DNA of 64,000 nt, from positions 154,682-218,681 of the forward strand of contig JBGTHP010000025.1 in NCBI GenBank assembly GCA_041746105.1. The letters run 5' to 3'. Positions 17,268-33,278 of this stretch are shown here, in pieces. Both the position numbers and the translations under genes were made by a program. Position 1 is the first letter of the stretch. Each line of letters starts with the position of its first letter. The notes beneath the pieces were generated by a model. It was not told the DNA's origin and did not search any database. It saw only the letters and a list, made by a program, of their open reading frames with translations. The stretch is from Acidimicrobiia bacterium. GTDB taxonomy: Bacteria > Actinomycetota > Acidimicrobiia > Spongiisociales > ZC4RG35.

Positions 17268-17268
17268 C

Positions 17269-18063: not shown

Positions 18064-18542
18064 GCCAGGATCGCGATGATGACATTCGAAGGGTTGTGGG
18101 CGGCGGCCACGACTTCGAGTCGATGGCTGCGGTCCTCAATGTGTACCGGGCGGCGACCTCGATCCGAAATCAGATCGAGCGAAAACTCCTGAACCGCCAT
18201 GGGCTCAGTTGGGGAGGGTTCACCGCGCTGTTCGTGCTGTGGATCTGGGGGCCGATGGAGTCTCACCGCCTGGCCGACGAATGCGGCCTCGCCAAGGGAA
18301 CGCTCTCGGGCGTGTTGACCACCTTGGAACGACGAGACCTGATTCGACGAAACCGGCTCAGCTCCGATCGCCGGCGAGTCGAGGTCGTGGCCACCGGCGC
18401 CGGGCTCGAGTTGGTCAAGGCCGTCTACCCGGAATTCAACCGGCTCGAAACCGACGTGACATCGTCGTTGACGGGAGAAGAAAAACGTCTCCTTGCCGAC
18501 ATGTTGGGACGGCTCCGTCGAACCGCAGAAGGAATTGGTTGA
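18060..18542 (+). CDS. MarR-family transcriptional regulator
   Basis: Winged-helix region (GPMESHRLADECGLAKGTLSGVLTTLERRDLIRR...DRR). ATGA overlap with the upstream stop. Confidence 0.8.
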   Translation: MSQDRDDDIRRVVGGGHDFESMAAVLNVYRAATSIRNQIERKLLNRHGLSWGGFTALFVLWIWGPMESHRLADECGLAKGTLSGVLTTLERRDLIRRNRLSSDRRRVEVVATGAGLELVKAVYPEFNRLETDVTSSLTGEEKRLLADMLGRLRRTAEGIG

Positions 18543-18600
18543 CGGGACGATCGGTCACAACATATCGTTTGGGGCCGAATGATCGAGAGAGAGGACGGCT

Positions 18601-19476
18601 ATGGGTGAGATCGTCGGCGTCGGATTGGTCAGCCACGTGCCTACCACCATGCTGCCAGAGGCGACTCGCCTCGAGCTGAACGATGGCAAAGAACTGAGCT
18701 TCATTCCAGGCTATGCCAGGCTTCGTCGAGAGGTGCTCGATCCGCTCGAGGCCGACACGATCGTCATTTTCGACTCACACTGGTTCACAACTGTCGAGCA
18801 TGTCGTCTCTTCCCACGAACGACGAGCGGGGGTGTTTACCAGTTCGGAGCTCCCAAGGGGTATGGCCCAACTCACCTATGACTATCCGGGAGACCCAGAA
18901 CTCGGTCGGGCGGCGGCGCGGATCGGCGCCGAGCTTGGAACACCAACACATGCATCAGAAGATCCCTACCTGCCGGTCTACTACGCCACGACCAACCTCG
19001 TTCACTTTCTCCGCCGCGACGAACGAGTTGTTTCGGTGAGTGTGGTCCAAACCGGGGAGACCGAAGATTTTCTCACCATGGGCGCCGCAATCGGAGCGGC
19101 AGTGGCGGAGGTCGACCGGCGGGTAGTGCTCTTTGCCTCCGGAGGCATGAGTCACCGGTTCTGGCGGCTCAAGGAATTGGTCAAGCATGAAGCTTCTGAT
19201 CCGGTTCACATCACCTCGCCAGATGCCCGTGCCGCGGATCTCGAACGGATCGAATGGATGAAACAAGGACGCCACGACTTGATCATCGACGGAATGGACA
19301 ACTATCTCCGGCACCATCCTGAAGGTGACTTCGGGCACTACTTGATGATGGTTGGGGCGGTCGGCGGGAAAGCCTGTGTCGCCCCGGGACGTATGTATTC
19401 GGAGTATGAGAGCTCGGCGGGCACCGGGCAGGTCCACATGTGGTTCGACCGCCCGGATCGGGGTTGGAGCGGCTGA
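18601..19476 (+). CDS. class III extradiol ring-cleavage dioxygenase (LigB family)
   Basis: LigB-family features (VIFDSHWF...GGMSHRF). Approximately 290 aa. Confidence 0.8.
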   Translation: MGEIVGVGLVSHVPTTMLPEATRLELNDGKELSFIPGYARLRREVLDPLEADTIVIFDSHWFTTVEHVVSSHERRAGVFTSSELPRGMAQLTYDYPGDPELGRAAARIGAELGTPTHASEDPYLPVYYATTNLVHFLRRDERVVSVSVVQTGETEDFLTMGAAIGAAVAEVDRRVVLFASGGMSHRFWRLKELVKHEASDPVHITSPDARAADLERIEWMKQGRHDLIIDGMDNYLRHHPEGDFGHYLMMVGAVGGKACVAPGRMYSEYESSAGTGQVHMWFDRPDRGWSG

Positions 19477-19487: not shown

Positions 19488-20636
19488 TCAGCGCGAGCGG
19501 CCGGTGGGAGAGTCAGACATCGTCAGGGATTGTCGATTTTCGAGTGTGAATCTGTCCTCCGGCTTCCAGCGTCCCATCGCCATTCCGGCAACATATTCGC
19601 CAACCACCGGCGCATGCTTGAAGATCGAGCCCGAACCTCCCCCGGCAAAGATCACGTCCGGTTGCTCTGGATGAAAGTCCAGCAAGAAGTGGGTATCCGG
19701 GGTCATCACGATCTGGCACACCCTCTGGTCCATGATCGGTTGTTGCGCCAACTCCGGGAAGCGATATGAAAGGTACTGCCGGCTCCGGGTGAGGGCACCC
19801 TGGTCCACCACCCGGTCGTCGTTGTCGAGGTCGATGTCCGTTTCGTGCCACGCGATTACGGCCTTGAACCCGCATCCTTCGACATCCGGAATCCCGTAAC
19901 CGGGGTAGCCGTGATCGATCCAAACCGGATGGTTGTCGGCGTGATATCTGGTGCTACCCGGCGGGGGCGCGGTGTAGATCACGTCCTGGCGCACAACCCG
20001 CAGCACTCGTCCCAGGGTTTGTCGATACATCTGGCCCATCCATGCCCCAGTCGCCACCACCGTCCGATCCGCCTTCAGCGGCTCCCCGTCCAGTTGGAGT
20101 CTTTCTTTGGCGCCGGTGCTCGGTCGTCCCAGTCGGAACCGCCCTCCGAGTGTCTGATACTCCTCGAACGCCCTGACCAGCGCTCGTCGTGCCCAGATGA
20201 ATCCTGCCTCGGGTTCGAATATGGCGAACTCGACCCGCTGGAAGTTCATGTGCGGATAACGCTGTTCCAACTCGTCTCTGGCAAGGCGAAAAGCTGGTAT
20301 CCCGAGGCGTTCCAGCGTCGGCAGGGCTGCTGCTTCCCAGGCGGAATGGCCGGTGGCCGCCATCACCAGACCACCGGTCTGGCGGAAGAGTTCGGTGTTC
20401 CAGTCGCGACCCAATTCCAGCCAGCGTTGCCGCGACTCATACTGCCAGCGGGTATACAGCTCGTCTGCGCCGTGAGCAGACCGGGTCACCCGGTGATGAT
20501 CAGAGGAGGCCGCCCTGGCATGTCCCGGCTCCCAGCCGTCGTACAAAACAACGTCACACCCCTGTTTTCGCAGCTCCAATGCAGTCATCACGCCTACGAT
20601 GCCAGCACCGATTACGGCGTATCGAGTGGCGGTCAT
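19488..20636 (-). CDS. FAD-dependent oxidoreductase (DAO family; sarcosine-oxidase-beta / PuuB-like amine oxidase)
   Basis: N-terminal YAVIGAGIVGVMTALEL Rossmann (GxGxxG). Start taken at the internal M (MTATRY...). Confidence 0.8.
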   Translation of the reverse strand: MTATRYAVIGAGIVGVMTALELRKQGCDVVLYDGWEPGHARAASSDHHRVTRSAHGADELYTRWQYESRQRWLELGRDWNTELFRQTGGLVMAATGHSAWEAAALPTLERLGIPAFRLARDELEQRYPHMNFQRVEFAIFEPEAGFIWARRALVRAFEEYQTLGGRFRLGRPSTGAKERLQLDGEPLKADRTVVATGAWMGQMYRQTLGRVLRVVRQDVIYTAPPPGSTRYHADNHPVWIDHGYPGYGIPDVEGCGFKAVIAWHETDIDLDNDDRVVDQGALTRSRQYLSYRFPELAQQPIMDQRVCQIVMTPDTHFLLDFHPEQPDVIFAGGGSGSIFKHAPVVGEYVAGMAMGRWKPEDRFTLENRQSLTMSDSPTGRSR

Positions 20637-20669: not shown

Positions 20670-20683
20670 TACTGTATACAGAA
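20670..20683. promoter_or_regulatory. palindromic operator-like motif tACTGTATACAGaa (site 1 of 4) in the divergent promoter region between the FAD-oxidase gene and the GS-like/BMC operon
   Basis: Perfect 10-bp palindrome CTGTATACAG at 20672-20681. Related motifs at 34236, 36346 and 36858. Confidence 0.55.
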
Positions 20684-20722
20684 TAGCTAGGGTCGCGCCA
20701 GCACAACCGAGGAGGATCATTG

Positions 20723-22012
20723 ATGGCGGCGCTCGATGAGGGCATCACAACGGTGGTGATGGGGATTGGCGACCTCAACGGCATCCTCCGCGGCAAGCGC
20801 ATCCCGATCTCGCACTGGCCAACGATCCGCGAGGAGGGGATGGCGCTTTCCAACGCCATCTTCGCCATGGACATGAATTGTGACATCTGGGACACACCCT
20901 ACGCCAACATGGGGACCGGTTACCCCGATGTCAGGGTGTTCCCGCTTTCGGAGAAGCCCCACCTGATGCCCTGGGATCCCGGCGCGGCGTTTGTGATGGG
21001 AAGGGTCGAAAAAGAACACGGCGGCCCACTCGAGATCGACCCGCGCAACGCTTTGGTGAAGGTCACGGAGAAGGCCAGTTCCATGGGACTGAACGTACTG
21101 ATCGGGGCCGAGCTCGAGTTCTTTTTGCTCGATCCGGAAACCCTCCAACCCCGGGACAGCGGCATCCAGGTCTATGGGTTGGAGCGAGCGATGGAACTCG
21201 AACCCGTTCTGGGCCCGATTCGCGACCAGTTGGTGGCGGCGGGCATCCCGATCGAACAGTCCAATCCGGAATATGCTCCCGGCCAGGTCGAGGTGAACAT
21301 CCGGTACTCGGACGCCCTCGAAACCGCCGACAGGGTGGTGGCATTCCGTGGCATGGTCAAACAACTGGCCGTGACGCATGGGTATGTCGCCTCCTTCATG
21401 GCCAAACCGTTCTTCGAACACTCCGGAAACGGCTTCCATGTGCACCATTCGGCAACCGACGATTCGGGCAAGAATCTCTTTGCCTCGGGCGGCCATCTAT
21501 CGGACCTGGGGACGTCGTATCTCGCCGGGTTGCGCAAGCACATGATGGAACTGGCAGTGTTCTCGGCTCCCAACCCAAACGCCTACCGGCGCCGGCAGCC
21601 TTACACCTTTTGCCCGATCAACAACGCATGGGGAGTCGACAATCGTACGGTCGGCCTCCGGGTGATCGAAGGACCGGACAAGATCGTGCGTGTCGAGCAG
21701 CGAGACGCGTCAGCCGACGCCAACCCGTATCTTCTGCTCGCGGGCCAGATCGCCGCCGGTTTGGCCGGCATCGAGGGTGGCTGGGACCCGGGGCCGGCAG
21801 AGACAGGCGATGGATACGCCAACGAAGCTGCAGATCCGCTCCCGCTGGAGTTAGGCTCGGCTATCGCTCTCGCTCAAGACTCAAACCTGATCAAATCCGT
21901 GTTCGACCCTGATCTGTTGGGTATCTATCTCAGTCAGGCGGCGAGAGAGATCGAATTCATCGGTGCCCAGGTCACGCCGCTCGAGCGTGAACGTTATCTC
22001 CGGAGCTTCTGA
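20723..22012 (+). CDS. glutamine-synthetase-like gamma-glutamyl-amine ligase (GlnA3/GlnA4/PuuA/GmaS-like)
   Basis: GS catalytic motifs GAELEFFL, NPEYAPGQVEVN, SGNGFHVHHS, NPNAYRRR and NRTVGLRV. Approximately 430 aa. RBS GAGGAGGA 7 nt before the ATG. Confidence 0.85.
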   Translation: MAALDEGITTVVMGIGDLNGILRGKRIPISHWPTIREEGMALSNAIFAMDMNCDIWDTPYANMGTGYPDVRVFPLSEKPHLMPWDPGAAFVMGRVEKEHGGPLEIDPRNALVKVTEKASSMGLNVLIGAELEFFLLDPETLQPRDSGIQVYGLERAMELEPVLGPIRDQLVAAGIPIEQSNPEYAPGQVEVNIRYSDALETADRVVAFRGMVKQLAVTHGYVASFMAKPFFEHSGNGFHVHHSATDDSGKNLFASGGHLSDLGTSYLAGLRKHMMELAVFSAPNPNAYRRRQPYTFCPINNAWGVDNRTVGLRVIEGPDKIVRVEQRDASADANPYLLLAGQIAAGLAGIEGGWDPGPAETGDGYANEAADPLPLELGSAIALAQDSNLIKSVFDPDLLGIYLSQAAREIEFIGAQVTPLERERYLRSF

Positions 22013-22317
22013 TGAGATTGGCACGCGTCGTCGGTACGGTCACCGCAACCACCAAAGATCGGGCACTGGAAGGGCATCGGTTTCTGGTTGTCGACCTGGT
22101 CGACCCCGACGGTGTCGTCATCGACCCGCATCACGTTGCTGCGGATGCGGTAGGCGCCGGCACCGGCGACTTGGTCCTGGTGACTTCAGGGTCCTCGGCG
22201 AGGCAGGCACAGCGAACAGTCGCCCTTCCCGCGGATTTGGCCGTTGTCATGATCGTTGACGAGATCGCAATGAGCGGACAGGGTGAGGCTTTGTCCAAGC
22301 ACAAGAAAGGAAAATGA
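22012..22317 (+). CDS. bacterial microcompartment vertex protein BMC-P (EutN/CcmL/PduN family)
   Basis: MRLARVVGTVTATTKD...GHRFLVVDLVD...VAADAVGAGTGDLVLVTSGSSAR matches the EutN/PduN pattern. tgATG overlap with the upstream stop. Confidence 0.9.
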   Translation: MRLARVVGTVTATTKDRALEGHRFLVVDLVDPDGVVIDPHHVAADAVGAGTGDLVLVTSGSSARQAQRTVALPADLAVVMIVDEIAMSGQGEALSKHKKGK

Positions 22318-22320
22318 GTG

Positions 22321-22602
22321 ATGGCAGATCAGATTGCCCTGGGCATGATTGAGACGCGGGGGGTGGTGGCGTCGATCGAGGCCGCCGATGCGATGGTGAA
22401 AGCCGCAAACGTGGCACTCGTCGGGCAAGAAAAGGCGGGCGGCGGCCTGGTTGCCGTTTTTGTCCGCGGCGAAGTTGGAGCCGTCAAAGCGGCGGTGGAT
22501 GCCGGCGCAGTCGCTGCGAACAAGGTTGGCGAAGTGATAGCCGTTCACGTTATCCCGCGCCCGGCGACCGAGATCGAGGGCATCCTCCCTCAGACGTCTT
22601 GA
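22321..22602 (+). CDS. bacterial microcompartment shell hexamer protein BMC-H (PduA/EutM/CcmK-like)
   Basis: [58 protein letters not shown]...VHVIPRP is near-identical in pattern to PduA. Confidence 0.95.
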
Positions 22603-22610
22603 ACTGATCG

Positions 22611-23780
22611 ATGACGACCGCGGGTTTCCATGAGGCGGTTGCGGCGTTTTCTGCGCCGGTTTCGGCTCGCCCCGACCCCAGAACGCCGGCTCGGGTCACC
22701 GTGCTCGGCTCGGGGGTTGAGGGTCGCGCCCTCGCGGCATGGTTCCTGGCAGAAGGCGCAGACCAGGTCAGTCTCTTCTCGGTGTACCAAGATGAATTGA
22801 CGGCACTTGCCCGAGGATCGATCACTCTGCGCGGAGACGGGCCGGTGGGGACATTCCGAGTAGGGGGCGAGGCCCCGTCGATCGCGTCGACATCGGTTTT
22901 GGATCGGTCGGTGGAAGGTGCCGATCTGGTCGTGATTTCGGGCCCCGTGCTGAAACAACGGACCTATGGGCTGGTGGTCGCCCCTTACCTACACGACGGT
23001 CAAACAATCTTGGTGGTTCCTGGTCGGTCGCTGGCGGCCCTCGAACTCCTTCAATCGATCCGTGCCGGTGGCAGCACCGCCGATGTGCGCTTGGTGGAGG
23101 TCGATGATCTACCTTTTGACATCGGCGTCGATGGGTCGACTCTGACGTTGACCCGGCGCCGGACCGTCAGAGCCGGTGTCTACCCCGGCTCGGCCACATC
23201 GGTTCTAGAGGGTTTGCGTCGTTTTTTCCCGGAACTGGTTTCCGCCACGTCGGTCCTCGATTCGACCCTTGGCGACGGTTCGGGCATCGTCTCGATCCCG
23301 GCGCTCCTGGTGGGCGGACCCGGCGCACCACCCATCGAAAGTGCAGGACCTCCCGGTGCGGTGTTGCTGAACCCGAACACTTTCCGCGGGCTGATCGGGG
23401 ATGCCCAAATACAATTGGTGGCGGCGTTGGCAGACGAGCGCAGAGAAGTGGCGAGTCGCTTTGGGTTGCGTGCGCTCCCGAGCGACGAAGAATGGTTGGA
23501 TGCCGTGGCAGGCTCCACAGAGGGCACTGGAGTGCGAGCAGTCCCTGACGAAGCCACCGCCCGCAGTCTGCTTCGAGATGCGGTGCTCGGCTCCCTTGTC
23601 CCCTTGACGTCGATGGCGAACGCCGCCGGCGTCGCCGCCCCGGTCACGGAAGCCATGATCGAGTTGTCGGAGCGCGTTCTTGGGACCGCGCTGCGAGCCA
23701 GCGGCAGGAATCTGGATCTCTGCGGGCTAGGGGGCCTGAGTGCGCCCGAGATTCGGGCCCGGCTGGCGGTGGCGTCGTGA
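22611..23780 (+). CDS. NAD(P)-binding oxidoreductase, opine-dehydrogenase-like (Rossmann N-domain plus helical C-domain)
   Basis: VTVLGSGVEGRALAAWFLAEG dinucleotide motif resembles opine DH (VLGLGNGGHAFAAYLALKG). Approximately 389 aa. 8-nt gap after BMC-H. Family assignment is tentative. Confidence 0.5.
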   Translation: MTTAGFHEAVAAFSAPVSARPDPRTPARVTVLGSGVEGRALAAWFLAEGADQVSLFSVYQDELTALARGSITLRGDGPVGTFRVGGEAPSIASTSVLDRSVEGADLVVISGPVLKQRTYGLVVAPYLHDGQTILVVPGRSLAALELLQSIRAGGSTADVRLVEVDDLPFDIGVDGSTLTLTRRRTVRAGVYPGSATSVLEGLRRFFPELVSATSVLDSTLGDGSGIVSIPALLVGGPGAPPIESAGPPGAVLLNPNTFRGLIGDAQIQLVAALADERREVASRFGLRALPSDEEWLDAVAGSTEGTGVRAVPDEATARSLLRDAVLGSLVPLTSMANAAGVAAPVTEAMIELSERVLGTALRASGRNLDLCGLGGLSAPEIRARLAVAS

Positions 23781-25159
23781 CCGATGCCGACCTGAGAAGT
23801 ATCGCCCAGGCGCGGCGCGCAGTAGAGGCCGCCCATGTCGCCCAGCAGCGATTTCTTGCCACCGATCCGTCACGTATCGACGAGATCGTCGAGGCGATGG
23901 CGCGTGCGGTCGAGATCGACGCCGCCCGACTCGGCGCGCTCGCAGCCGAGGAGACCGGCTACGGCAACGCAGAGGACAAACGAATCAAGAACCTCTTCAA
24001 CTCGATCGGAGTCGCAGAGTGGCTGCGCAACGTCAAGACTCTTGGAGTCCTATGGCAAGACCCGGTTACAAAAGTGGTGGCGATAGGCGAACCGATGGGG
24101 GTAGTGGTCGCCCTAATCCCGGTAACCAACCCGACCTCGACCATCATCTTCAAAGTGCTGTCTGCGGTGAAAGCCGGCAATGCCATCGTGTGTGCACCAC
24201 ATCCACGCGGGGTCGGGTGCGGAATGGAAACCGTAAAAGTGATGATGACTGCGGCGGCCGAGCACGGGGCGCCGGACAACCTGATCCAATGTCTTTCCGA
24301 GGTGACCGTCGAGGGCACCCAGGAGCTGATGCGCCACCGCCGGACGTCGGTGGTCATGGCGACCGGGGGATCGGCGATGGTTCGAGCGGCCTATTCCTCC
24401 GGTAAACCGACCCTGGCGGTGGGCCCAGGGAACGTGCCCGTGTACGTCCATGCGTCGATGCGCGACGAGCTTCGCGAAGTCGCCGATCAAATCCTCACGT
24501 CCAAGTCGTTCGACTACGGCACGGCGTGCGCAGCGGAGCAGGCCGTGGTCGTCGACAGGGCCGTCGCCCCGCTGCTCGAACAGGAGGTCCGCCAATTGGG
24601 CGGCTACTTCTGCACGACGGGTGAGGCAGCCAGACTGGCCGATGTGATCTTTGACGACAACCAGGTGATCCGGCCTGGGGGAGTGGGGCAGTCGGCCTCC
24701 GAACTCTCTCGCAGGGCAGGTTTTGGAGTTCCCCCCAACACCCGTGTTCTCCTCGCCCGTGAGAGCGAGGTCGGACGAAACCGCCCACTCTCGCTCGAGA
24801 AACTGAATCCGGTGCTGGCCTGGTACGACGCCCCGAGTGAGGATCAGGCGTATGAACTGTGCTTCCAGATCTTGCGATTCGGCGGTAGGGGTCACACTTC
24901 GGCGATCCACACCAAAGATCCCGCCATTGTCGCCCGGTTTGGCCGCCTACCGGCAGGAAGGGTCCTGATCAACCAACCGGCGCTGATGGGGGCAATGGGA
25001 TACTCGGCCGACCTCGAACCGAGCTTCATGCTGGGCACGGGGACCGTATCTGGCTCGATCGTGTCAGACAATGTGACCGCCTTGCATCTGATCAACATCA
25101 AACGTGTCGCCTACGAGTCGAGACCGTGGCGCAGCATCTACGACGTATACGGAGCGTGA
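23777..25159 (+). CDS. CoA-acylating aldehyde dehydrogenase (EutE/PduP family)
   Basis: Approximately 460 aa with FDYGTACAAEQ active-site region (cf. FDNGxxCxSEQ). Lacks the ELGGKSP/GQxC motifs of hydrolytic ALDHs. Sits between shell genes. Confidence 0.85.
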   Translation: MTDADLRSIAQARRAVEAAHVAQQRFLATDPSRIDEIVEAMARAVEIDAARLGALAAEETGYGNAEDKRIKNLFNSIGVAEWLRNVKTLGVLWQDPVTKVVAIGEPMGVVVALIPVTNPTSTIIFKVLSAVKAGNAIVCAPHPRGVGCGMETVKVMMTAAAEHGAPDNLIQCLSEVTVEGTQELMRHRRTSVVMATGGSAMVRAAYSSGKPTLAVGPGNVPVYVHASMRDELREVADQILTSKSFDYGTACAAEQAVVVDRAVAPLLEQEVRQLGGYFCTTGEAARLADVIFDDNQVIRPGGVGQSASELSRRAGFGVPPNTRVLLARESEVGRNRPLSLEKLNPVLAWYDAPSEDQAYELCFQILRFGGRGHTSAIHTKDPAIVARFGRLPAGRVLINQPALMGAMGYSADLEPSFMLGTGTVSGSIVSDNVTALHLINIKRVAYESRPWRSIYDVYGA

Positions 25160-25161
25160 CC

Positions 25162-25791
25162 ATGAACCGACCTGGAACCGTGGTCAGAGCCCTGCTTCAG
25201 ATCGATCGACTTCAGCCAAAATTCGCCGCCTACAACGGTGCCACCGTTCAGGGGTCTATTCCCCTCGCCGGGGACACGATCCTCGTTGGCGAGATGGCGC
25301 CAGGCAACGAGGTGTTCAGATTGATCGACACCGCCTTGAAAGCAGCCACCATCGAGGCGACCAGCCAGATCGTGGAGCGCGAATTCGGGTTCTTCATCCT
25401 CCGATCACCCAGTAATGCGGAGATCAGCGCAGCCCGCGACGCGATTCTGGCCCATCTCGGGATCACGATGTCCGATCGGCTGAAACCGGTCGTGGAATCT
25501 ACCCAGATCATCACCTCGGTTGAGCCCTATCAGGCCCAACTTCTCAACAAATGGCGCAAAGGGTCCCTTCTGGTACCCGGCCAAACTCTCGGCATCGTCG
25601 AATGCGCTCCCGCTGCCTATATCTCGATAGCGGCCAACGAGGCCGAGAAGTCGGCCGATATCGACATCGTCGAGGTACGCGCGGTCGGCCGTTTCGGTCG
25701 ATTCTTCATGTCGGGATCGGAAGCGGCGGTTGAGACCGCAATGGAGGCGGCCGTCATCGCACTCCAAGCGGTAGAAGGAAGGGCCCAGTGA
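25162..25791 (+). CDS. tandem-domain BMC shell protein (BMC-T-like)
   Basis: Two approximately 90-aa BMC-like halves. The second half (TLGIVECAPAAYISIAANEAEKSADIDIVEV...GSEAAVETAMEAAV) is a clear BMC domain. Confidence 0.7.
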   Translation: MNRPGTVVRALLQIDRLQPKFAAYNGATVQGSIPLAGDTILVGEMAPGNEVFRLIDTALKAATIEATSQIVEREFGFFILRSPSNAEISAARDAILAHLGITMSDRLKPVVESTQIITSVEPYQAQLLNKWRKGSLLVPGQTLGIVECAPAAYISIAANEAEKSADIDIVEVRAVGRFGRFFMSGSEAAVETAMEAAVIALQAVEGRAQ

Positions 25792-26999
25792 CCTCTGGTC
25801 GACCGGTGATTCACCCCGGGGCCGGGGTGATCGGCGAGGTCGATGTGCTCGGCGCGTTCCGGCAGGGACGCCGTACGCTCCATGTCCAGCCAAGCGCCCT
25901 GGTCACCAATCAGGCGGCGGAGGCGGCTCAGCGGCTCGGTGTTTCCATTGTTGTGGGGGCTCCGACGGCGGCGGCAGTGCCCGCCACCGACGGGGCCGCG
26001 GTACTCCGCCGATCGCTTTACCGACGCAGCCCGAAGTTTGTACCGTCGGAAAAGCCCAGAGGCCTCCAACCATCGACGCTGGGACGACTCGTTATCGTGG
26101 GAGCGGGCGGTGTCGGATCCAATACGGCCCATCTGGCGGCTTCGCGCTCGCTTGCCCACGAGATCGTGCTCATCGACGTGGTTCCAGGATCGGCGGCCGC
26201 CACTGCCCTCGACCTCGAACATTCGGCCGGCATCACCGGTTCAACATCGCGTTTGAGTGGAGGAACCGACCTGGCGATGATCGAGGGGGCCGACGTCGTG
26301 GTCATAACCGCCGGTCGGCCCCGGTCCCCTGGCATGTCCAGAAGTGATCTGGTCGGGACCAATGGCAGGGTTGTACGCCAGGTGTCGGAACAAGTGGCGT
26401 CGGTTGCCCCGGGATCCGTCGTGATCGTTGTCACGAACCCACTAGACGAGATGACCGTGGAGGCGCTACGTGCAACCGGCTTTCCCAGAGAGCGCGTTCT
26501 GGGGATGGCGGGCACTCTCGACTCCGCACGATTCAGGTCGTCCTTGGCGAGAGCCGCCGGCGTTGACCCTGGCGATGTCGAGGCGATCACTCTGGGTAGC
26601 CATGGCGAGGAGATGGTCCCGATCATCAGCACCGCCACGGTACGCGGCCGTCCGCTTGACACGGTGCTGACTCCCGAGCAGATCGACCGCTGCGTCGCCG
26701 AAACCGTTGCGGGAGGTGGTCAAATCGTCGCGCTTCGCAAATCGGGCTCCGCAACCTTGGCTCCGGCCCACGCAACGCTCGAGGTTCTCGAGTCGATTCG
26801 AGGCGCCCGGGCGGGAGCCATCCCGGTTTCGATTCGCTTGGAAGGCGAATACGGGATCAGCGGCACGGTGGTGGGTGTTCCAACAATATTGGGCTCGGCC
26901 GGCGTGATCGAGATCGTCGAGTTGCCGCTGGCCTCAGGAGAAATGTCTGCACTGGCTCGCGCCGCGGCCGCCGTCGCCGCCCGAGTAGCCTCGGTCTGA
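25788..26999 (+). CDS. L-lactate/malate dehydrogenase-family oxidoreductase with approximately 95-aa N-terminal extension
   Basis: LVIVGAGGVGSNTAHL Rossmann, VVITAGRPRSPGMSRSDL and GSHGEEMVPI LDH/MDH motifs start at about aa 100. GTGA overlap with the BMC-T stop supports the long N-terminus. Confidence 0.8.
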   Translation: MTSGRPVIHPGAGVIGEVDVLGAFRQGRRTLHVQPSALVTNQAAEAAQRLGVSIVVGAPTAAAVPATDGAAVLRRSLYRRSPKFVPSEKPRGLQPSTLGRLVIVGAGGVGSNTAHLAASRSLAHEIVLIDVVPGSAAATALDLEHSAGITGSTSRLSGGTDLAMIEGADVVVITAGRPRSPGMSRSDLVGTNGRVVRQVSEQVASVAPGSVVIVVTNPLDEMTVEALRATGFPRERVLGMAGTLDSARFRSSLARAAGVDPGDVEAITLGSHGEEMVPIISTATVRGRPLDTVLTPEQIDRCVAETVAGGGQIVALRKSGSATLAPAHATLEVLESIRGARAGAIPVSIRLEGEYGISGTVVGVPTILGSAGVIEIVELPLASGEMSALARAAAAVAARVASV

Positions 27000-27526
27000 T
27001 GGGTTTCGAAGAAGTCGAGTTCGGGTCTCGCAAGGTTGTGGCCGTGAGCCGGCCTTCCAAGCCGCGTAAGCGTGAGGGCCGGGCAAGCACGCAGAAGCCC
27101 GATCCATCGGAGCCGCCGGCCGACACGGGAGCGGTCCTGGTTCCCCTTGATCAGTGGACGAGTATTCTCAACCAACTCGGAAACCTCCACCAGGCGGGTC
27201 AGCAGATGGCCGACGCCAGGGAACGGGCGGCGAAGGCCGAAACGGAAGCCTTTTTCCTCAAGGAGCGGCTGCGGGAATTACGAGAGGAACTTGCCAAGGC
27301 GAGAGCTGCGGCCACGGAATTCGTCAACAGCACCGCATCCGTCGACACCGAAGTGGCTCCAACCGACACCGGGGTCACTGCGACCGGCGATCCGGCAAGC
27401 GGCGCAAGCGAAATCGGCCAAGTCCAAGAAGACGAAGACGTCGCCATTGACCTCACCACCGACCGGGTGCTCATTGTCAGGCTTCCGAGCAGAGTCACCA
27501 AATGGTGGCTCGAGCGGCGGACCTGA
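26999..27526 (+). CDS. hypothetical coiled-coil protein
   Basis: ATGA overlap with the upstream stop. E/K/R-rich helical composition. An alternative-frame ORF (27072-27545) looks like an Arg-rich translation artefact. Confidence 0.45.
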   Translation: MGFEEVEFGSRKVVAVSRPSKPRKREGRASTQKPDPSEPPADTGAVLVPLDQWTSILNQLGNLHQAGQQMADARERAAKAETEAFFLKERLRELREELAKARAAATEFVNSTASVDTEVAPTDTGVTATGDPASGASEIGQVQEDEDVAIDLTTDRVLIVRLPSRVTKWWLERRT

Positions 27527-27545
27527 TGAGAAAGCCGACGGCGCT

Positions 27546-28457
27546 GTGAGAGTGGCAGCAGTTCAGGCGGCTCCTGTTTGGCTCGACCGCGCCAAAACGA
27601 TCGAGGTCGTCGTCGATTCGATCGCGGCGGCGGCCGCCGGGGGAGCAGAAGTGGTCGCCTTCCCGGAGACGTTCTTACCCGGATATCCGGTATGGGTCGA
27701 CATGACCGACGCCGCCAGTTGGGAAAATCCGCGTCAAAAGGACGCATACGCCTGGTATGTGGACCAGGCGGTTGATCTGGCGGGCGCCGAGTTCGAGTTG
27801 GTGGTCAATGCCGTGAAAGACCATGGCGTGTTCGCCTATGTCGGGGTGGTGGAGCGATCAGCTTCTGCTGGTTCGGTCTACTGCACCTTGGTGGCGATTC
27901 ATCCAGACGAAGGTGTGGTGGGAGCACACCGCAAGCTCAAGCCGACCTTTGGGGAGCGTTTGGTCTGGGCCGACGGCGATGGAGCCGGCCTGAAAGCCCA
28001 CAGATGGAAGGAGGCGACCCTCACCGGATTGAACTGTTGGGAGAACTGGATGCCACTGGCGCGAGCAGCCATGTACTCGCTCGGGTCACAGATTCACATC
28101 GCGACGTGGCCCGGATCGACGAAACTGACCCAGGACATCACCCGGTTCATCGCCAAGGAGGGCAGAGTGTTCGCAGTCAGCGTCGGCGGTGTCTATCGGG
28201 CAGAAGATATCCCCTCGTCATTCCCACTTGCCGAGCAAATGCTGGCGCACGCCTCTGAGTTCTACAACGGTGGTTCGATGATTGTTGCTCCGGACGGGTC
28301 TGTCATCGTCGGGCCGGTGGCGTCGGAAGAGGGGCTGTTGTTCGCCGATCTCGATCTTGCGATGGTTACGCGGGAACGCCAGAACTTCGACCCGTCAGGT
28401 CACTACTCCCGTCCCGACGTGCTACACCTAGCCGTCGACAGGAAACGAAACGCCTGA
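27546..28457 (+). CDS. carbon-nitrogen hydrolase (nitrilase/amidase superfamily)
   Basis: VAAVQAAPVWLD...AFPETFLPGYP (Glu), HRKLKP (Lys) and LNCWENWMP (Cys) form the Glu-Lys-Cys triad. GTG start. Confidence 0.8.
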   Translation: MRVAAVQAAPVWLDRAKTIEVVVDSIAAAAAGGAEVVAFPETFLPGYPVWVDMTDAASWENPRQKDAYAWYVDQAVDLAGAEFELVVNAVKDHGVFAYVGVVERSASAGSVYCTLVAIHPDEGVVGAHRKLKPTFGERLVWADGDGAGLKAHRWKEATLTGLNCWENWMPLARAAMYSLGSQIHIATWPGSTKLTQDITRFIAKEGRVFAVSVGGVYRAEDIPSSFPLAEQMLAHASEFYNGGSMIVAPDGSVIVGPVASEEGLLFADLDLAMVTRERQNFDPSGHYSRPDVLHLAVDRKRNA

Positions 28458-28488
28458 TCGGACTGCCGGTCCGATTGGGTCGGATTCG

Positions 28489-29658
28489 ATGCCTACGGTA
28501 TCTTCGAAACTGATGGCCAAACCGCTCAAAATCGCTTTGCTCGGTACCAAGTTCATGGGAAAGGCGCACTCTCATGCTTGGGCCAATGCCGCCAAATTCT
28601 TCGATCTGCCCCGCCGACCGCTCCTCCACGTCGTAGCCGGGAGAAACCCGGAAGAAACGAGCGCATTTGCCGATCGCTGGGGGTGGCAGAGCAATACGAC
28701 CCGCTGGATGGATGTTGTCGAAGACCCCGACGTCGACCTCGTCGACATCGGGACCCCCAACTCGCTTCACGCAGGTCAGGCGATCGCGGCGCTCGAGGCG
28801 GGCAAACATGTGGCGTGCGAGAAGCCAATGGCGGGAACTCTGGCCGATGCGCGTGAGATGATGAAGGCTGCAAAGAAGGCGCATACTCAGACCTTCGTCT
28901 GGTACACGTATCGTCGTGTGCCTGCCGTCGGTCTGGCCCACCAATTGGTCAAAGAGGGCAGGCTCGGACGGATCTACCACGTGCGCGCCAGTTATCTCCA
29001 GAGCTGGGGAGGGCCGGAGACGCCGTTGCTGTGGCGTTTCCGGGGTGAAGAGGCCGGTTCCGGGGCTCATGGTGATCTCAACGCCCACATCATCGACATG
29101 GCGCGTTTCATCACGGGGGACGAGATCTTCGAGGTGTCGGGTGCGATCGAGCAGACGTTCATCAAGGATCGGGCGCTTCCGGGTGACCCGGCCAGAAGGG
29201 GCCGGAGCACGGTCGACGATGCCGTGTTGTTTCTTGCCCGCTTCCAGGGGGGAGCGGTCGGTTCTTTTGAGGCCACGAGGCTGGCGACCGGCATCAAGAA
29301 TTCGAATCGGATCGAGGTCCACGGCGAGCTGGGTGCCATCGCTTTCGATTTCGAGCGGATGAATGAACTGCGCTTCTTCGACGCGACCGCGCCAACCCGG
29401 CTGCAAGGTTGGCAAACCATCCTCACCACCCACGAGACACATCCCTACGCCGGATCGTGGTGGCCGGATGGGCACTGGCTAGGTTACGAACACACGTTCA
29501 CGAACCAGGCAGCCGACATCGCCCGGTCGCTTTCGCGCCGCAAGCCCGAGCTGCCGCTTCCTGACTTTGCCGATGCCTACCTCACCCAGCGAGTGATGGA
29601 GGCGGCGATCACCTCGGCGCGTGAACGGACACCGGTCAAGCTGTCTGAGATCAAATAA
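28489..29658 (+). CDS. Gfo/Idh/MocA-family NAD(P)-dependent oxidoreductase
   Basis: LKIALLGTKFMGKAHSHAW N-terminal Rossmann and EKPMAGT motif. Confidence 0.85.
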   Translation: MPTVSSKLMAKPLKIALLGTKFMGKAHSHAWANAAKFFDLPRRPLLHVVAGRNPEETSAFADRWGWQSNTTRWMDVVEDPDVDLVDIGTPNSLHAGQAIAALEAGKHVACEKPMAGTLADAREMMKAAKKAHTQTFVWYTYRRVPAVGLAHQLVKEGRLGRIYHVRASYLQSWGGPETPLLWRFRGEEAGSGAHGDLNAHIIDMARFITGDEIFEVSGAIEQTFIKDRALPGDPARRGRSTVDDAVLFLARFQGGAVGSFEATRLATGIKNSNRIEVHGELGAIAFDFERMNELRFFDATAPTRLQGWQTILTTHETHPYAGSWWPDGHWLGYEHTFTNQAADIARSLSRRKPELPLPDFADAYLTQRVMEAAITSARERTPVKLSEIK

Positions 29659-29673
29659 CAATCCGGGTCCTGG

Positions 29674-30105
29674 TTGAATCCGGGGATGACAACAAAACCG
29701 CGACTGGGTCACCAGCAGGCGAAGCTGATCGTGGACGAGATCGGAAAGCAGCTCGAGGCACATGACGAAGGGGCGGCCGTCGCCGTGGTCGACGATCACG
29801 GCGAGCTGATGGCATTCTTCCGGACGGACCGATGCCGGCTTCCGTCGATCCAGATCGCGATCAACAAGGCGTACGCCGCCGCCAGAGAACAAATCGAATC
29901 GGCCGAACTGGGAGCGCGCTCACGGGAGGAGGGCTGGCCGATGACCAACTTCGGTGATCTGCGGTATCCGAGCTGGGGCGGGGGTGTTCCGATCCGGATC
30001 GACGGGGTGGTGGTCGGTGCGGTAGGGGTGAGCGGGCTGGCAGAGGCCCGCGACATCGAGCTGGCGCGGGCCGGGGTGCGGGCAGGCGTCCGTGCCGACG
30101 GCTGA
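29674..30105 (+). CDS. GlcG/DUF336 heme-binding-like protein
   Basis: GAAVAVVDDHGELMAFFRTD...GGGVPIRIDGVVVGAVGVSG pattern of DUF336 (also found as the PduO C-terminal domain). Confidence 0.7.
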   Translation: MNPGMTTKPRLGHQQAKLIVDEIGKQLEAHDEGAAVAVVDDHGELMAFFRTDRCRLPSIQIAINKAYAAAREQIESAELGARSREEGWPMTNFGDLRYPSWGGGVPIRIDGVVVGAVGVSGLAEARDIELARAGVRAGVRADG

Positions 30106-30149: not shown

Positions 30150-30422
30150 GTGGTCGTAGGGCTGAGCGACTTCGAAGAGATCATCGCCGCACTGGACGGG
30201 GAAGCCTGGCATGGCACGGACGAGGACTATTTCATGGCGCTGATGATGCATGCGATTGACAAGTTGCCGGTTGCTCGAGTCGTCGAGCTGGGTGCCACCG
30301 TCTTAGAACAACACGACAACCACTGGGGCAAGCGAACGGCCGCAAACATTCTTCAAGAACTGGCCTGGGAAAGCCCAACCGAGCTCTCTCCGCCGCTCCT
30401 TCGAACTACATGTTGCAGTTGA
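30150..30422 (+). CDS. hypothetical small protein
   Basis: ORF only. No motif recognised. 3' end overlaps the convergent toxin gene. Confidence 0.3.
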   Translation: MVVGLSDFEEIIAALDGEAWHGTDEDYFMALMMHAIDKLPVARVVELGATVLEQHDNHWGKRTAANILQELAWESPTELSPPLLRTTCCS

Positions 30423-30735
30423 CGGCGACCGCCAAGGCCGCGCACACCGCCCGCATGCGCCCGTCACTCAACCTGCCGAGGCGTTCGGTCAGCGTTCCGA
30501 TCGAAACACTCTCCAGCGAGTCGAGATTGACAGCAGACTGGAGGGGGATCGGATCCTCTCCGGGCTCCAGCAGCACCTCGCTCGCAAGCCCGCGGATCGT
30601 TGTCGTGCATGGAGCGATCAGCGCTCTTCGAAGGCGGGGGATCGCCACGTCTCGAGAAAGAACCACCACTGGGCGACGACGGATGTCAGGCAACTCGCAC
30701 CACCACACCTCGCCCCTCGCCGGTAGATCCTTCAC
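30406..30735 (-). CDS. MazF/PemK-family toxin (mRNA interferase)
   Basis: [11 protein letters not shown]...RPVVVLSRD...[12 protein letters not shown] pattern. GTG start at 30735 gives a 4-nt overlap with the antitoxin stop. Confidence 0.7.
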
Positions 30736-30968
30736 GAAGAGGCTGCCGCCTCTCGAAACGACGCCAGGTCGCCCCATTCATCAATCTCATCGAGGGGACG
30801 TTCGTCGTAGGCGGCGTATCCGGCGTCGATCTCGGCTGCGCGATGTTTGGCTACCAATGCACCGAGAGCTTCATCGAGCAGGGCGGCGTCGTTCAGATCC
30901 GACCTCAGGTTCCTCGCGTTCTCCAAGAGCGACTCGTCTACCGTGGTGCTAACCCGTATGCGTGACAT
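30732..30968 (-). CDS. antitoxin (MazE/ribbon-helix-helix-like) of the adjacent toxin
   Basis: Small acidic ORF ([16 protein letters not shown]...) immediately upstream of and overlapping the toxin. Confidence 0.55.
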
Positions 30969-31179
30969 GGCATAACTATGCCACAATATGTGATCTTTTC
31001 AAGACCCCGGTCTGTCACGGCCTCGAAGCCCGCCCCGGCGGACGGCGACCAAGATCCTCCCAACAACCGAGGCGTGGAGCGGAACCTGAGTCTTCGGGTG
31101 AAGAACCCCACGAGTGTCAGCCGGGAATTCCACTCCGCCCACCAGGGACGGGTCGAACCAGCCGCGCAGGCGGCTACGG

Positions 31180-32601
31180 TCACCAGGTGAAGGGCCGGTC
31201 GATACCGGCCATCTTGACGCCGGTGAACGCGCTCGCCTCCAGGCTCAGTGCACGGAGATCCTCGACCTCGAGGTTGTGCACCGAACTTTTGCCGCAAGCC
31301 TTGGCCAGCAGCGTGATCTCCATCGTCATCGCCGTCAGGTAGCGAGCCACCCTTTCGGCCCCGGCTGCGACCTGCATGCGTTTCTCCAGCTCGGGGTCTT
31401 GTGTCGTGATTCCGACCGGACAGCGTCCGGTGTGACAGTGGTGACACTGCCCGGGAGCGGTACCCAACGCTTCGTAGTCGTCGAGATACCTTGGACTGTT
31501 GCACCCCAGTGCCATCAGAGCCGCGGTGCCGATCATGACACAGTCGGCGCCGAGGGCGAGAGCCTTGGCCGCATCAACACCGGAGCGGATTCCACCGGCG
31601 GCCACCAACTTGACCTCGTCGGCCATGCCGCAATCTTCCAGCGCCTGTCTGGCGGCTCTGATCGCGGACAGGGTGGGAATGCCGGTGTGGTCGAGCAGCA
31701 GTTCTGGTGAGGCGCCGGTCCCTCCCTCGGCCCCATCGACCACGATCACGTCGGCGCCGGCCTTGGCGGCGATGGCCACATCAAAACGAGGCCGGGTGGC
31801 CCCCATCTTGACAAACATCGGGATCTTGTAGTCGGTCGCCTCCCTCAGTTCCTCGATCTTCACCTGGAGATCGTCGGCGCCGAGAAAATCTGGGTGACGT
31901 ACGGTCGAACGTTGATCCACACCCAGCGGCAACGAACGCATCTTGGCCACTCGTTCAGAAACCTTCATCCCGAGCAGGATTCCACCGGTCCCCGGCTTGG
32001 CCCCCTGGCCAACGACTATCTCGATTGCGTCTGCCCTTCGCAGATGATCCAGGTCGAGCATGTAACGCGACGGGGTCATCTGGTAGACGAGTTTGTTGGA
32101 TGCCTCGCGTTCGTCTTCGAGCATCCCGCCCTCGCCGGTACACGTCATCGATCCGACCTTTGAGGCGCCGTATCCGAGGGCGGCCTTGGCCGACGCCGAG
32201 AGAGCGCCAAAAGACATCGATGCGATGTATATCGGGATCCCCAGGTCGAGTGGCTGTGAAACAAGACCCTTGCGGTCGCCGAGGACTGTGCGGGTGTCAC
32301 AGCTCTCTCGGTATCCTTCGAGAGGGAGTCGAGTCATCGAAGCCGGAACAAAAACGAGGTCGTCAAAGGTGGGAAAACTCTTGTTTGCGGTGGTGAAACC
32401 ACGAATCTGATAGCGGCCGAGCCTCGACAGTGCGTGGACCTCCGATATCGACTCCGGGGTCCACCGGATCGACTTTCCTGGTGCGTACGAGGATGGGACC
32501 CCGGCCGGGCGCCCGCCGATTCCGCCGTCGGTCATCGCCACCGCGTCTTCGTCTGGCATCGGGAATGGGTACTGGTACCCCTGGGTCAGATCATCAGCCA
32601 T
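31180..32601 (-). CDS. glutamate-synthase-family FMN-binding protein (GltB domain 2-like; MgsC-like)
   Basis: Glu_synthase FMN/Fe-S domain (GGTGASP, CxxGxC cluster region). Approximately 473 aa. Confidence 0.85.
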   Translation of the reverse strand: MADDLTQGYQYPFPMPDEDAVAMTDGGIGGRPAGVPSSYAPGKSIRWTPESISEVHALSRLGRYQIRGFTTANKSFPTFDDLVFVPASMTRLPLEGYRESCDTRTVLGDRKGLVSQPLDLGIPIYIASMSFGALSASAKAALGYGASKVGSMTCTGEGGMLEDEREASNKLVYQMTPSRYMLDLDHLRRADAIEIVVGQGAKPGTGGILLGMKVSERVAKMRSLPLGVDQRSTVRHPDFLGADDLQVKIEELREATDYKIPMFVKMGATRPRFDVAIAAKAGADVIVVDGAEGGTGASPELLLDHTGIPTLSAIRAARQALEDCGMADEVKLVAAGGIRSGVDAAKALALGADCVMIGTAALMALGCNSPRYLDDYEALGTAPGQCHHCHTGRCPVGITTQDPELEKRMQVAAGAERVARYLTAMTMEITLLAKACGKSSVHNLEVEDLRALSLEASAFTGVKMAGIDRPFTW

Positions 32602-33278
32602 GCGCTCGCATCCCTACTCTCGAAGTGCCACAACCGTTGCCCCGACACGATTTTCTTCCAGTCGAACGAACCCGTTATGTCGAGGCCGGCCAGCAGCTGG
32701 GATACGTCGGCAACCTCTTCTGCCGTCGGCTCGACGACATCCGTATCCACGCCGAGAGACTTGATCGGCCCTGCCACCCACACCTCGCCACCCCACAACG
32801 AATCACCGCACGCGTCCTCTGTGCCCTCGAGGGCGATGATGCGACCGGCGTGGGCCATGAACCCCGTCAAAAACCCGACCTTCCCCTCCACGACGATGTC
32901 GCCGCCCTTCATTGCCACACCGCAGCGGGGTCCGGCGTCGCCTTTGACATGGATCAGTCCGCCCCGCATGGAGGCGCCAACGCTCATCCCTGCGTACCCG
33001 TCCACGGTGACGGATCCCTTGGCCATGGCCTCACCGGTACCCCAGCCGGCGTTGCGGGTGACCCTGATCGTCGCCCCGTTGTTGAGGCCGCCGCAGTAAT
33101 AACCGACCGAACCGTCGAAGAGGATGTCGGCGCCTTCCGGCAGCGCAACCCCGAGGTTGTGTCGCGAGAGGGTGTCGCGAACCATGACCCGTTCACCTTC
33201 TGCGATTGCCATACGGATCTCGGCGTTCACCTCTCGGATCGGCCTGTCGCCGACAACCACCTCCACGCGATCGGTCAT
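32586..33278 (-). CDS. glutamate synthase GXGXG-domain protein (MgsB-like)
   Basis: Repeated GxGxG beta-helix motifs (GDAGPRCGVAMKGGDIVVEG). Confidence 0.8.
   Translation of the reverse strand: MTDRVEVVVGDRPIREVNAEIRMAIAEGERVMVRDTLSRHNLGVALPEGADILFDGSVGYYCGGLNNGATIRVTRNAGWGTGEAMAKGSVTVDGYAGMSVGASMRGGLIHVKGDAGPRCGVAMKGGDIVVEGKVGFLTGFMAHAGRIIALEGTEDACGDSLWGGEVWVAGPIKSLGVDTDVVEPTAEEVADVSQLLAGLDITGSFDWKKIVSGQRLWHFESRDASAWLMI

Follow-up and report, generated by a model that had tools for sequence, protein, structure and literature searches.

The present analysis deals with a window of 64,000 nucleotides (the whole stretch of DNA that was analysed) from an Acidimicrobiia bacterium (GenBank assembly GCA_041746105.1, contig JBGTHP010000025.1, positions 154,682 to 218,681 of the forward strand) and with the bacterial microcompartment (BMC) operon that it carries at positions 20720-30105. 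The operon consists of 11 co-directional genes:

20720/20723-22012, + strand: glutamine synthetase (GS)-like gamma-glutamyl-amine ligase, first gene of the operon, belonging to the core of type MIC2 (metabolosome with incomplete core 2; see below) (Gln-synt_C, 282 bits)
22012-22317, + strand: BMC-P, vertex pentamer (EutN_CcmL, 89.8 bits; cutoff 25)
22318/22321-22602, + strand: BMC-H, hexamer (BMC, 95.4 bits; cutoff 24.5)
22611-23780, + strand: opine-dehydrogenase (OpDH)-like NAD(P) oxidoreductase, candidate lumenal signature enzyme (profile search against PDB; AlphaFold and Foldseek)
23777-25159, + strand: CoA-acylating aldehyde dehydrogenase (AldDH) (TIGR02518, an acetylating acetaldehyde dehydrogenase (ACDH) model, 480 bits)
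25162-25791, + strand: BMC-T of the double-stacking CcmP/CsoS1D kind (BMC-Tdp) (NF053796, CcmP, 207 bits)
25788-26999, + strand: malate dehydrogenase (MDH)-type enzyme with an N-terminal extension of about 98 aa (PRK06223, 324.8 bits; cutoff 283)
26999-27526, + strand: open reading frame (ORF) of 175 aa (no Pfam or NCBIfam match)
27546-28457, + strand: C-N hydrolase of the nitrilase branch (CN_hydrolase, 141-143 bits)
28489-29658, + strand: Gfo/Idh/MocA oxidoreductase (Pfam and NCBIfam scans)
29674-30105, + strand: GlcG/HbpS-like (DUF336) protein (HbpS-like, 96 bits)

These genes had been proposed in a first-pass annotation made from the letters of the window, and each of them was found at its coordinates. 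Since they overlap or lie 1-32 nt apart, their arrangement is compatible with a single transcription unit, which the 11 co-directional genes would fit; scans for sigma-70 promoters (2 against a shuffled mean of 1.6) and for intrinsic terminators (12 against a shuffled mean of 8.3, standard deviation 3.2) were uninformative. The three shell genes are real, as BMC and EutN thresholds were passed in the Pfam profile search. The BMC-T protein shows one BMC domain in the Pfam scan (40.9 bits), its residues 7-208 are covered by NF053796 and its precomputed Pfam annotation consists of CsoS1D_N and BMC. No second copy of a shell gene was found in the 64 kb by tblastn with the shell proteins, and BMC-H in particular is present as a sole copy. 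With one hexamer, one pentamer, one trimer and an acylating AldDH, this is a genuine metabolosome-type locus with a minimal shell, as the first-pass annotation had claimed. The same annotation was right in stating that the usual enzymes are lacking: neither a phosphotransacylase (PTAC) nor an Fe-type alcohol dehydrogenase (ADH), EutBC, PduCDE or glycyl-radical enzyme occurs among the scanned ORFs of the window. The locus is not of the EUT, PDU, GRM or RMM type, since the signature enzymes of these types were not found in the scanned ORFs.

A described type with the same core gene content exists in the published catalogue of BMC loci. MIC2 (Sutter et al. 2021, PMC8217296, Supplementary Data 2) is represented there by 22 loci from Acidithiobacillia, Alpha- and Gammaproteobacteria and two Actinobacteria. 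It is characterized by an AldDH without encapsulation peptide (EP), a pfam00120 glutamine synthetase, the lack of satellite loci, a pfam02866 lactate/malate dehydrogenase whose N-terminal extension of about 70 aa is exclusive to the BMC context, and a protein of the 6PGDH-like superfamily with a possible helical EP of about 10 aa; no function was assigned to it (PMC8217296). A 2024 paper considered NAD+ regeneration in MIC2/3 as still undetermined. The core genes of the window correspond to this description feature by feature: the AldDH (Aldedh, 86.8 bits) is devoid of EP; Ldh_1_N and Ldh_1_C begin at residue 100 of the N-extended pfam02866 enzyme; a 6PGDH-like protein with a short N-terminal helix is encoded (helical-domain match to Octopine_DH, helix in the AlphaFold2 (AF2) model); a pfam00120 gene of the GS family is present; there is a single H/P/T shell set, with a BMC-T of the Tdp kind and without paralogues in the 64 kb; and neither satellite shell loci nor any second BMC locus lie nearby in the window. 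Identities to loci of the same architecture reach 65-86% for AldDH and 76-91% for BMC-T, and actinobacterial members had already been catalogued. We are therefore confident that the seven-gene core (GS, BMC-P, BMC-H, OpDH, AldDH, BMC-T and MDH) is a member of MIC2, and the suggestion of the first-pass annotation that the locus could represent an undescribed type is refuted for the core genes. The window nonetheless differs from the catalogue entry by four additional downstream genes (175-aa ORF, nitrilase, Gfo/Idh/MocA and GlcG) and by the length of the MDH extension (about 98 aa versus about 70 aa).

Furthermore, the catalogue text does not mention an oxidase, RidA, MgsABC, a transporter, GntR or an operator, all of which we predict here from sequence to be linked to MIC2. 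In the window, these partners lie outside the limits that the first-pass annotation gave to the operon; it named real genes and missed GntR, the permease and RidA as well as the divergent FAD oxidase and the MgsABC-like genes. The additional features of the island are:

14278-15081, + strand: class-I glutamine amidotransferase/Peptidase_C26, PuuD-like hydrolase candidate (GATase, 53.8 bits)
19488-20636, - strand: FAD amine oxidase resembling monomeric sarcosine oxidase (MSOX), divergent from the BMC operon (Pfam DAO, 151 bits)
20671-20682: palindromic operator ACTGTATACAG, in the oxidase/GS divergent promoter
31180-32601, - strand: MgsC-like FMN domain of the N-methylglutamate-synthase type (Glu_synthase, 317 bits)
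32586-33278, - strand: MgsB-like GXGXG subunit (GXGXG, 48 bits)
33275-34219, - strand: MgsA-like class-II amidotransferase subunit (GATase_6 and GATase_7)
34237-34248: second operator copy, ACTGAATACAG / ACTGTATTCAG, 18 nt upstream of the MgsA start
34878-36293, - strand: amino acid/amine permease of the APC family (AA_permease_2, 76 bits)
36347-36358: third operator copy, about 55 nt upstream of the permease start
36426-36821, - strand: imine/enamine deaminase of the RidA family (Ribonuc_L-PSP, 69 bits)
36823-37602, + strand: transcription regulator with GntR and FCD domains

Conservation was assessed with the opine-DH-like protein as marker for related loci: with an alignment of its relatives, 141 species genomes that encode it were found, and 80 loci were kept; the window genes were then counted by tblastn in the 49 loci with full 10-kb flanks. 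The closest relatives of the marker (56-60% identity) come mostly from metagenome-assembled genomes (MAGs) of Acidimicrobiia. Among the other carriers, marine Alphaproteobacteria predominate (Paracoccaceae/Rhodobacteraceae, Hyphomicrobiales, Hoeflea, Nitratireductor, Microbaculum, Ruegeria profundi, Aliishimia ponticola), accompanied by some Gammaproteobacteria. The FAD oxidase, GS, BMC-P, BMC-H, OpDH, AldDH, BMC-T and MDH genes are present in 49/49 loci, with median identities of 76% for BMC-H and 66% for AldDH and an identity of about 80% for BMC-T. RidA follows with 44 loci, the MgsABC-like genes with 25-27, the GntR/FCD gene with 21 and the PuuD-like class-I amidotransferase with 15 (24 loci when a proteobacterial query was used). 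The gene order does not change in the 14 mapped loci nor in the loci with called genes, the usual layout being [GntR][MgsABC][PuuD-like] oxidase(-) / GS, P, H, OpDH, AldDH, T, MDH, RidA / transporter. In proteobacterial loci, the GntR/FCD gene adjoins the Mgs operon, RidA directly follows the MDH gene and the transporter is a Liv/HAAT-type ABC system, and in Acidimicrobiia-type loci the transporter is an APC permease.

The downstream genes of the operon are distributed quite differently. The nitrilase was found in two of the full-flank loci (three related loci altogether), the 175-aa ORF in one (three close relatives altogether, L005, L008 and L009, of the Acidimicrobiia-type clade), Gfo/Idh/MocA in one as a weak match with 26% identity, and GlcG, like the upstream LigB, acetoacetate-decarboxylase (ADC)-like and MarR genes, in none of the 49. 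The nitrilase and the 175-aa gene are patchy even inside the closest, Acidimicrobiia-type clade, and Gfo/Idh/MocA and GlcG appear to be effectively confined to this window. These low counts indicate late, lineage-specific additions rather than core genes. Hence, the unusual composition that the first-pass annotation had seen in the nitrilase, Gfo/Idh/MocA and GlcG genes does not hold, as these genes are not conserved with the shell. The nitrilase probably starts at GTG 27546 and not at the ORF start 27072, and its score on the Nit6803-family model (188 bits) is under the cutoff of that model. Inspected by eye, the 175-aa ORF appears to be partly of low complexity, with a helical stretch in its centre.

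A palindromic motif links the genes of the island. The divergent region between the oxidase and GS genes is 84 nt long and holds a perfect palindrome, the first of the three operator copies listed above. With at most one mismatch, ACTGTATWCAG gives six strand matches in the window, i.e. three palindromic sites (0.38 expected), a number reached in none of 100 shuffles. All three sites lie in promoters of the island, namely those of oxidase/GS, MgsA and the permease; a weaker operator-like site occurs at 36859-36869. With the same tolerance, the motif is found in the oxidase/GS region of 68/70 related loci from three bacterial classes, and further copies turn up repeatedly at two positions, which in the mapped loci precede the Mgs operon and the transporter. 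It is also present upstream of MgsA in loci without BMC genes (L085 and L087). Independently of adjacency, the shared palindrome joins the BMC operon and the oxidase to MgsABC and the transporter, and this suggests that the genes preceded by ACTGTATWCAG form one predicted regulon. The motif is compatible with the GT..AC core of GntR-family operators; the neighbouring GntR/FCD protein is therefore its likely binder.

Many products of this putative regulon belong to families acting on amines or on glutamate-type compounds. The oxidase, whose likely start is ATG 20636 in an ORF that continues to 20720, has its best NCBIfam matches with N-methyl-L-tryptophan oxidase (MTOX) and soxA_mon, and aligns over its full length with MSOX (1el5, E 1e-34). 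Equivalents of MSOX Cys315, Arg49, Arg52, Lys265 and Lys348 are conserved in the alignment, the Cys presumably linking the flavin and the Arg and Lys binding the carboxylate. An N-alkyl alpha-amino acid is thereby implied as the putative substrate. The C-terminal tail of the oxidase (19488-19560, ...DRF.i..R..LS..ESPSGR) is conserved in aligned homologues from 15 other loci; it does not form an amphipathic helix, and the protein does not exceed MSOX in length.

The GS-like ligase scores under the cutoffs of the GlnA, type III GS and gamma-glutamylputrescine synthetase models. With TIGR03105 (type III glutamate--ammonia ligase), which we take to be a GmaS-type model, it obtains 228.6 for a cutoff of 469.6. 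Among PDB sequences, it is nearest to GS-like proteins, one of which, NpaA1 (8wwu), glutamylates 1-naphthylamine; the two solved methylamine ligases score below other GS-like PDB proteins. The MgsA gene starts at ATG 34219 (MCGIAARI...), downstream of a GGAGG ribosome-binding site. Between Acidimicrobiia-type and proteobacterial loci, the MgsC-like proteins share 79-93% identity, compared with about 44% for the oxidase and about 45% for OpDH, which suggests either a very strong constraint or a recent transfer of the Mgs genes. In the JGI annotation, MgsC homologues bear the name 'methylamine---glutamate N-methyltransferase subunit C'. The PuuD-like gene is a variable accessory gene of the island and encodes a candidate gamma-glutamyl-amide hydrolase. 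The permease matches weakly both general amino-acid transporter and ethanolamine permease models.

Other genes were considered as clues to the substrate and set aside. The binding protein of the ABC transporter matched generic binding proteins of the Leu/Ile/Val type, and only weakly. In Sulfitobacter aestuariivivens (L084, GCA_014763045.1), a gene of the alkyl-sulfatase type (13649-14914; Lactamase_B and Alkyl_sulf_dimr domains) lies inside the ABC-transporter operon that adjoins the MIC2 locus; none of the 80 other loci has this gene. On a marine metagenome contig (L086, Ga0068471_1051313), an APH-type kinase and a class-III aminotransferase are encoded at 4072-6337 next to a complete MIC2 locus; they lie some 2 kb upstream of its Mgs operon, RidA and GntR being in between. 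The MgsC cluster of this contig counts 369 member sequences. This pair is also absent from the other 80 loci and was kept as a weak hint. In the window itself, neither a class-III aminotransferase nor an APH-type kinase occurs among the scanned ORFs, Pfam scans of these ORFs found no Aminotran_3 or APH domain, and tblastn with the pair of L086 was negative as well.

The two dehydrogenases that accompany the shell differ at their termini, which the first-pass annotation had proposed to check for encapsulation peptides. Residues 3-449 of the 460 residues of AldDH align with positions 1-446 of TIGR02518, so that there is no terminal extension; the translation contains the context SFDYGTACAAEQ, the probable catalytic Cys motif. 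The MDH carries an N-terminal extension, which is kept in more than 100 homologues of 390-405 aa and for which AF2 predicts a small alpha/beta domain (residues 14-56) and, after it, a basic helix (69-80). The EutQ/cupin likeness that the catalogue had suggested for this extension was not supported, as no Pfam, PDB-profile or significant Foldseek match was obtained and the model shows a small alpha/beta domain plus helix, not a cupin. The remainder of the protein is close to Chloroflexus MDH (1uxi, E 5e-74, with about half of the aligned residues identical by eye), and the contexts GRPRSPGMSR, LDSARF and GSHGEE are kept in the alignment. These contexts hold the residues that we take to be Arg102, Arg109, Asp168, Arg171 and His195, i.e. 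the catalytic His/Asp and three Arg, one of which presumably specifies oxaloacetate.

The opine-DH-like protein scores 26.6 on Pfam Octopine_DH, under the cutoff of 30. Its family profile retrieves from PDB the opine dehydrogenase CENDH (1bg6) over the full length (E 1e-30), and 1bg6 is also the top Foldseek match of the AF2 model (pLDDT 88), with TM-scores of 0.76 (query-normalised) and 0.84 (target-normalised). The next matches are octopine and metallophore opine dehydrogenases, then ketopantoate reductases. In the model, the N-terminus consists of a helix (residues 3-14) and a disordered linker (15-27). According to an exhaustive profile search, about 60 subfamily clusters carry this N-terminal extension, whereas generic homologues of about 360 aa are devoid of it and begin at profile position ~28. 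Since an extension restricted to a subfamily is the usual signature of an encapsulation peptide, the modelled helix is a candidate EP-like element.

Taken together, these data make it likely that the locus is a MIC2 member, and the genes that accompany it suggest a role in the degradation of amines via glutamate-linked intermediates. The six families of the regulon that act on glutamate-type C-N bonds or imines (GS-like, MgsABC-like, MSOX-like, opine-DH-like, RidA and PuuD-like) point in this direction. Moreover, the layout of the regulon parallels the GmaS-MgsABC-MgdABCD methylamine pathway, and by this analogy we infer that an amine route would be the most economical reading. A small amine would be imported and gamma-glutamylated by the GS-like ligase, and the gamma-glutamylamide would be converted into an N-alkylglutamate by the MgsABC-like enzyme. 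This compound would be oxidized to glutamate and an aldehyde by the encapsulated, NAD+-dependent opine-DH-like enzyme, favoured as lumenal generator of the aldehyde because it carries the EP-like helix. The FAD oxidase and RidA might act outside the shell, on the same N-alkyl amino acid or imine or on a related one. Within the shell, AldDH would convert the aldehyde into acyl-CoA, and the MDH would reduce oxaloacetate to malate and so regenerate lumenal NAD+, a malate/oxaloacetate shuttle replacing the usual alcohol dehydrogenase; acyl-CoA and CoA might cross the gated BMC-Tdp. For the function of the MIC2 locus in converting amines to aldehydes, we see the balance as even, and the specific roles given here to the opine-DH-like enzyme and to the MDH are tentative. 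It would be speculative to regard MIC2 as the first microcompartment fed by a gamma-glutamyl/N-alkylglutamate pathway, with lumenal cleavage by the opine-DH-like enzyme, an MDH shuttle and a single GntR switch acting via ACTGTATWCAG.

Several observations weigh against the amine reading. The catalytic residues of CENDH, which we take to be His202, Arg292 and Asp297, are not all recovered: in the HMMER alignment, His202 faces a Glu in most family members and a Ser in the window protein, and Asp297 faces an Asp/Cys column (residues 222-228 and 322-323 of the window protein). An invariant Arg lies near the presumed CENDH site, in an alignment that is uncertain at 25% identity. As the His and Asp are not clearly conserved, the enzyme may not be a true opine dehydrogenase; its subfamily has an invariant motif of its own, GPVLKQRTY, and several invariant Arg. 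The oxidase, whose homologues point to it as the source of the aldehyde, carries neither a terminal extension nor a targeting signal, and the aldehyde could thus arise outside the shell. Only about half of the loci have MgsABC within 10 kb, and an Arenicellales MAG (L085, 7582-13934) harbors a GntR-MgsABC-GS-like-PuuD-like module without BMC, i.e. without shell, AldDH, MDH, OpDH or oxidase, its GS being 62% identical to that of the window. The amine-processing module can therefore occur apart from the compartment. The transporters are of amino-acid types, which would suit an amino-acid-like substrate equally well, and no CoA-recycling enzyme was found at the locus. Finally, full-text searches for functional literature on MIC2 gave nothing beyond the catalogue and one remark on NAD+ recycling. 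Independently of these points, the amine-processing module of L085 is listed in 165 blocks of the assembly collection.

Other explanations have to be weighed against amine degradation through glutamate-linked intermediates. A more specific form of it would be an amino-alcohol organelle, similar to RMM/AAUM, in which ethanolamine or 1-amino-2-propanol would yield the aldehyde via gamma-glutamylation. The catalogue places the AldDH of MIC2 next to those of MIC1 and RMM1 (PMC8217296), the AldDH of the window scores best on an acetaldehyde-type ACDH model, the abundant marine contig L086 has the RMM signature kinase/aminotransferase pair alongside its MIC2 genes, and the permease has its weak match to the ethanolamine permease model. 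However, this last score is far under the cutoff, neither the window nor any of the other 80 loci has the kinase/aminotransferase pair, and no core gene points to a hydroxylated substrate; we therefore consider this version unlikely. We judge just as unlikely the import of a preformed secondary amine or opine-type imino acid (e.g. N-carboxyalkyl amino acids of marine invertebrates) and its cleavage by the opine-DH-like and MSOX-like enzymes, an aldehyde such as glyoxylate being trapped by AldDH. It is true that the nearest solved relative of the lumenal enzyme, 1bg6, is an opine dehydrogenase, presumably a catabolic one, that the oxidase keeps residues which we assume to bind amino-acid carboxylates, that the transporters are of amino-acid types and FCD regulators presumably respond as a rule to carboxylates, and that many carriers are marine, at least one of them originating from the bryozoan Bugula neritina. 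Nevertheless, such a route leaves the universally conserved GS-like ligase and the co-regulated MgsABC unexplained, canonical opine cleavage gives keto acids and not aldehydes, and the presumed catalytic residues of CENDH are not clearly conserved.

A methylamine/formaldehyde organelle, in which a variant N-methylglutamate pathway would release confined formaldehyde to be converted into formyl-CoA, seems to us improbable. The architecture does parallel gmaS-mgsABC-mgdABCD, with an MSOX-like enzyme replacing MgdABCD, and MgsC homologues are annotated as methylamine-glutamate N-methyltransferases; on the other hand, the ligase falls short of the presumed GmaS-type model and is nearer to other GS-like PDB proteins than to the two solved methylamine ligases, no formyl-CoA or C1 enzyme belongs to the conserved set, and transporters of amino-acid types would be odd for methylamine. 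The view that the functional core of an undescribed metabolosome type comprises all 11 genes, including nitrilase, Gfo/Idh/MocA and GlcG, is very improbable: the genes are co-directional and tightly spaced, and GlcG/DUF336 proteins are known in other BMC loci, but the match of seven genes to published MIC2 largely refutes it, as do the counts of the nitrilase, 175-aa, Gfo and GlcG genes (2, 1, 1 and 0 of 49 loci) and the patchiness of the first two even among Acidimicrobiia-type relatives. Still harder to defend is the idea that the shell genes are relics that form no compartment. It could draw on the presence of only three shell genes without PTAC or ADH; yet BMC-H and BMC-T are at least as conserved as the enzymes, in all 49 loci, in three classes and in a fixed order.

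The island lies in a neighbourhood of housekeeping genes (nusA-infB-truB-pnp), pnp being upstream of the locus in two relatives too. Between the BMC and Mgs operons, a MazF/PemK-type toxin gene is located at 30406-30986 on the - strand (55 bits) and a small ORF upstream of it shows a weak likeness to CcdA/VapB antitoxins; this pair is absent from related loci. Genes resembling those of aromatic catabolism flank the island at 15109-19476 and 37603-40280, and include a FAA hydrolase, two P450s, an acetoacetate-decarboxylase-like gene, MarR, a LigB-type dioxygenase and a HpaE-like aldehyde dehydrogenase. One P450 (16008-17267) recurs in three close relatives (L005, L007 and L008). The possibility that the upstream LigB, ADC-like and MarR genes belong to an ARO-type-like system was rejected, given their absence from the 49 loci. 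Elsewhere in the window, long ORFs without Pfam match at 8592-10652 (+ strand, 686 aa), 45636-47609 (+ strand, 657 aa) and 7193-8200 (- strand, 335 aa) may be uncharacterised proteins or spurious ORFs in DNA of 61% G+C.

The type itself, catalogued in 2021, is not a discovery; MIC2 remains without known substrate, signature enzyme or cofactor-recycling route. The present analysis makes the locus testable by providing a fixed eight-gene core, co-regulated enzymes of glutamate-linked amine metabolism, a candidate operator and regulator, and the MDH as a candidate for NAD+ recycling. Cultured carriers are available, namely Sulfitobacter aestuariivivens, Ruegeria profundi, Hoeflea poritis, Aliishimia ponticola and Microbaculum marinum. 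If the amine model is true, BMC biology would gain a new chemistry, together with a new route by which nitrogen and carbon are recovered from amines in carriers that are mostly marine on present sampling, and the very small shell set would also lend itself to engineering.

Among known systems, MIC1 has in common with the window an N-extended pfam02866 dehydrogenase and the closest AldDH, and differs, according to the type-HMM table of the catalogue only, by an HMM for a Zn-type alcohol dehydrogenase and the lack of a GS-like ligase (PMC8217296). RMM1/AAUM of Mycobacterium and Rhodococcus resembles the locus by a related acylating AldDH, a BMC-Tdp, a permease and the lack of a classical alcohol dehydrogenase core, and by an aldehyde which, as we infer for the window, would derive from an amine. 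By contrast, the RMM signature, an APH-type kinase and a class-III aminotransferase-like phospholyase, is absent from the window and from 80/81 related loci. The N-methylglutamate pathway likewise combines, in clustered genes, a GS-like gamma-glutamyl ligase, an MgsABC-type synthase and an oxidase of the sarcosine-oxidase family, which in the window appear to be co-regulated. Here, however, the ligase fails the presumed GmaS-type model, the oxidase is monomeric and MSOX-like instead of heterotetrameric with a folate-binding subunit, and no Mgd subunits were found near the locus, which thus does not show the canonical combination of GmaS and heterotetrameric MgdABCD; what the locus has in addition is a BMC shell, an MDH, an acylating AldDH and an opine-DH-like enzyme. 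Lastly, the Puu pathway (PuuA, PuuB, PuuC and PuuD) shares with the island a GS-like ligase, a DAO-family oxidase, aldehyde dehydrogenases and a Peptidase_C26 protein, whereas the oxidase of the window is nearest to MSOX/MTOX among the scoring NCBIfam models, its AldDH is CoA-acylating, and MgsABC and the shell come in addition.

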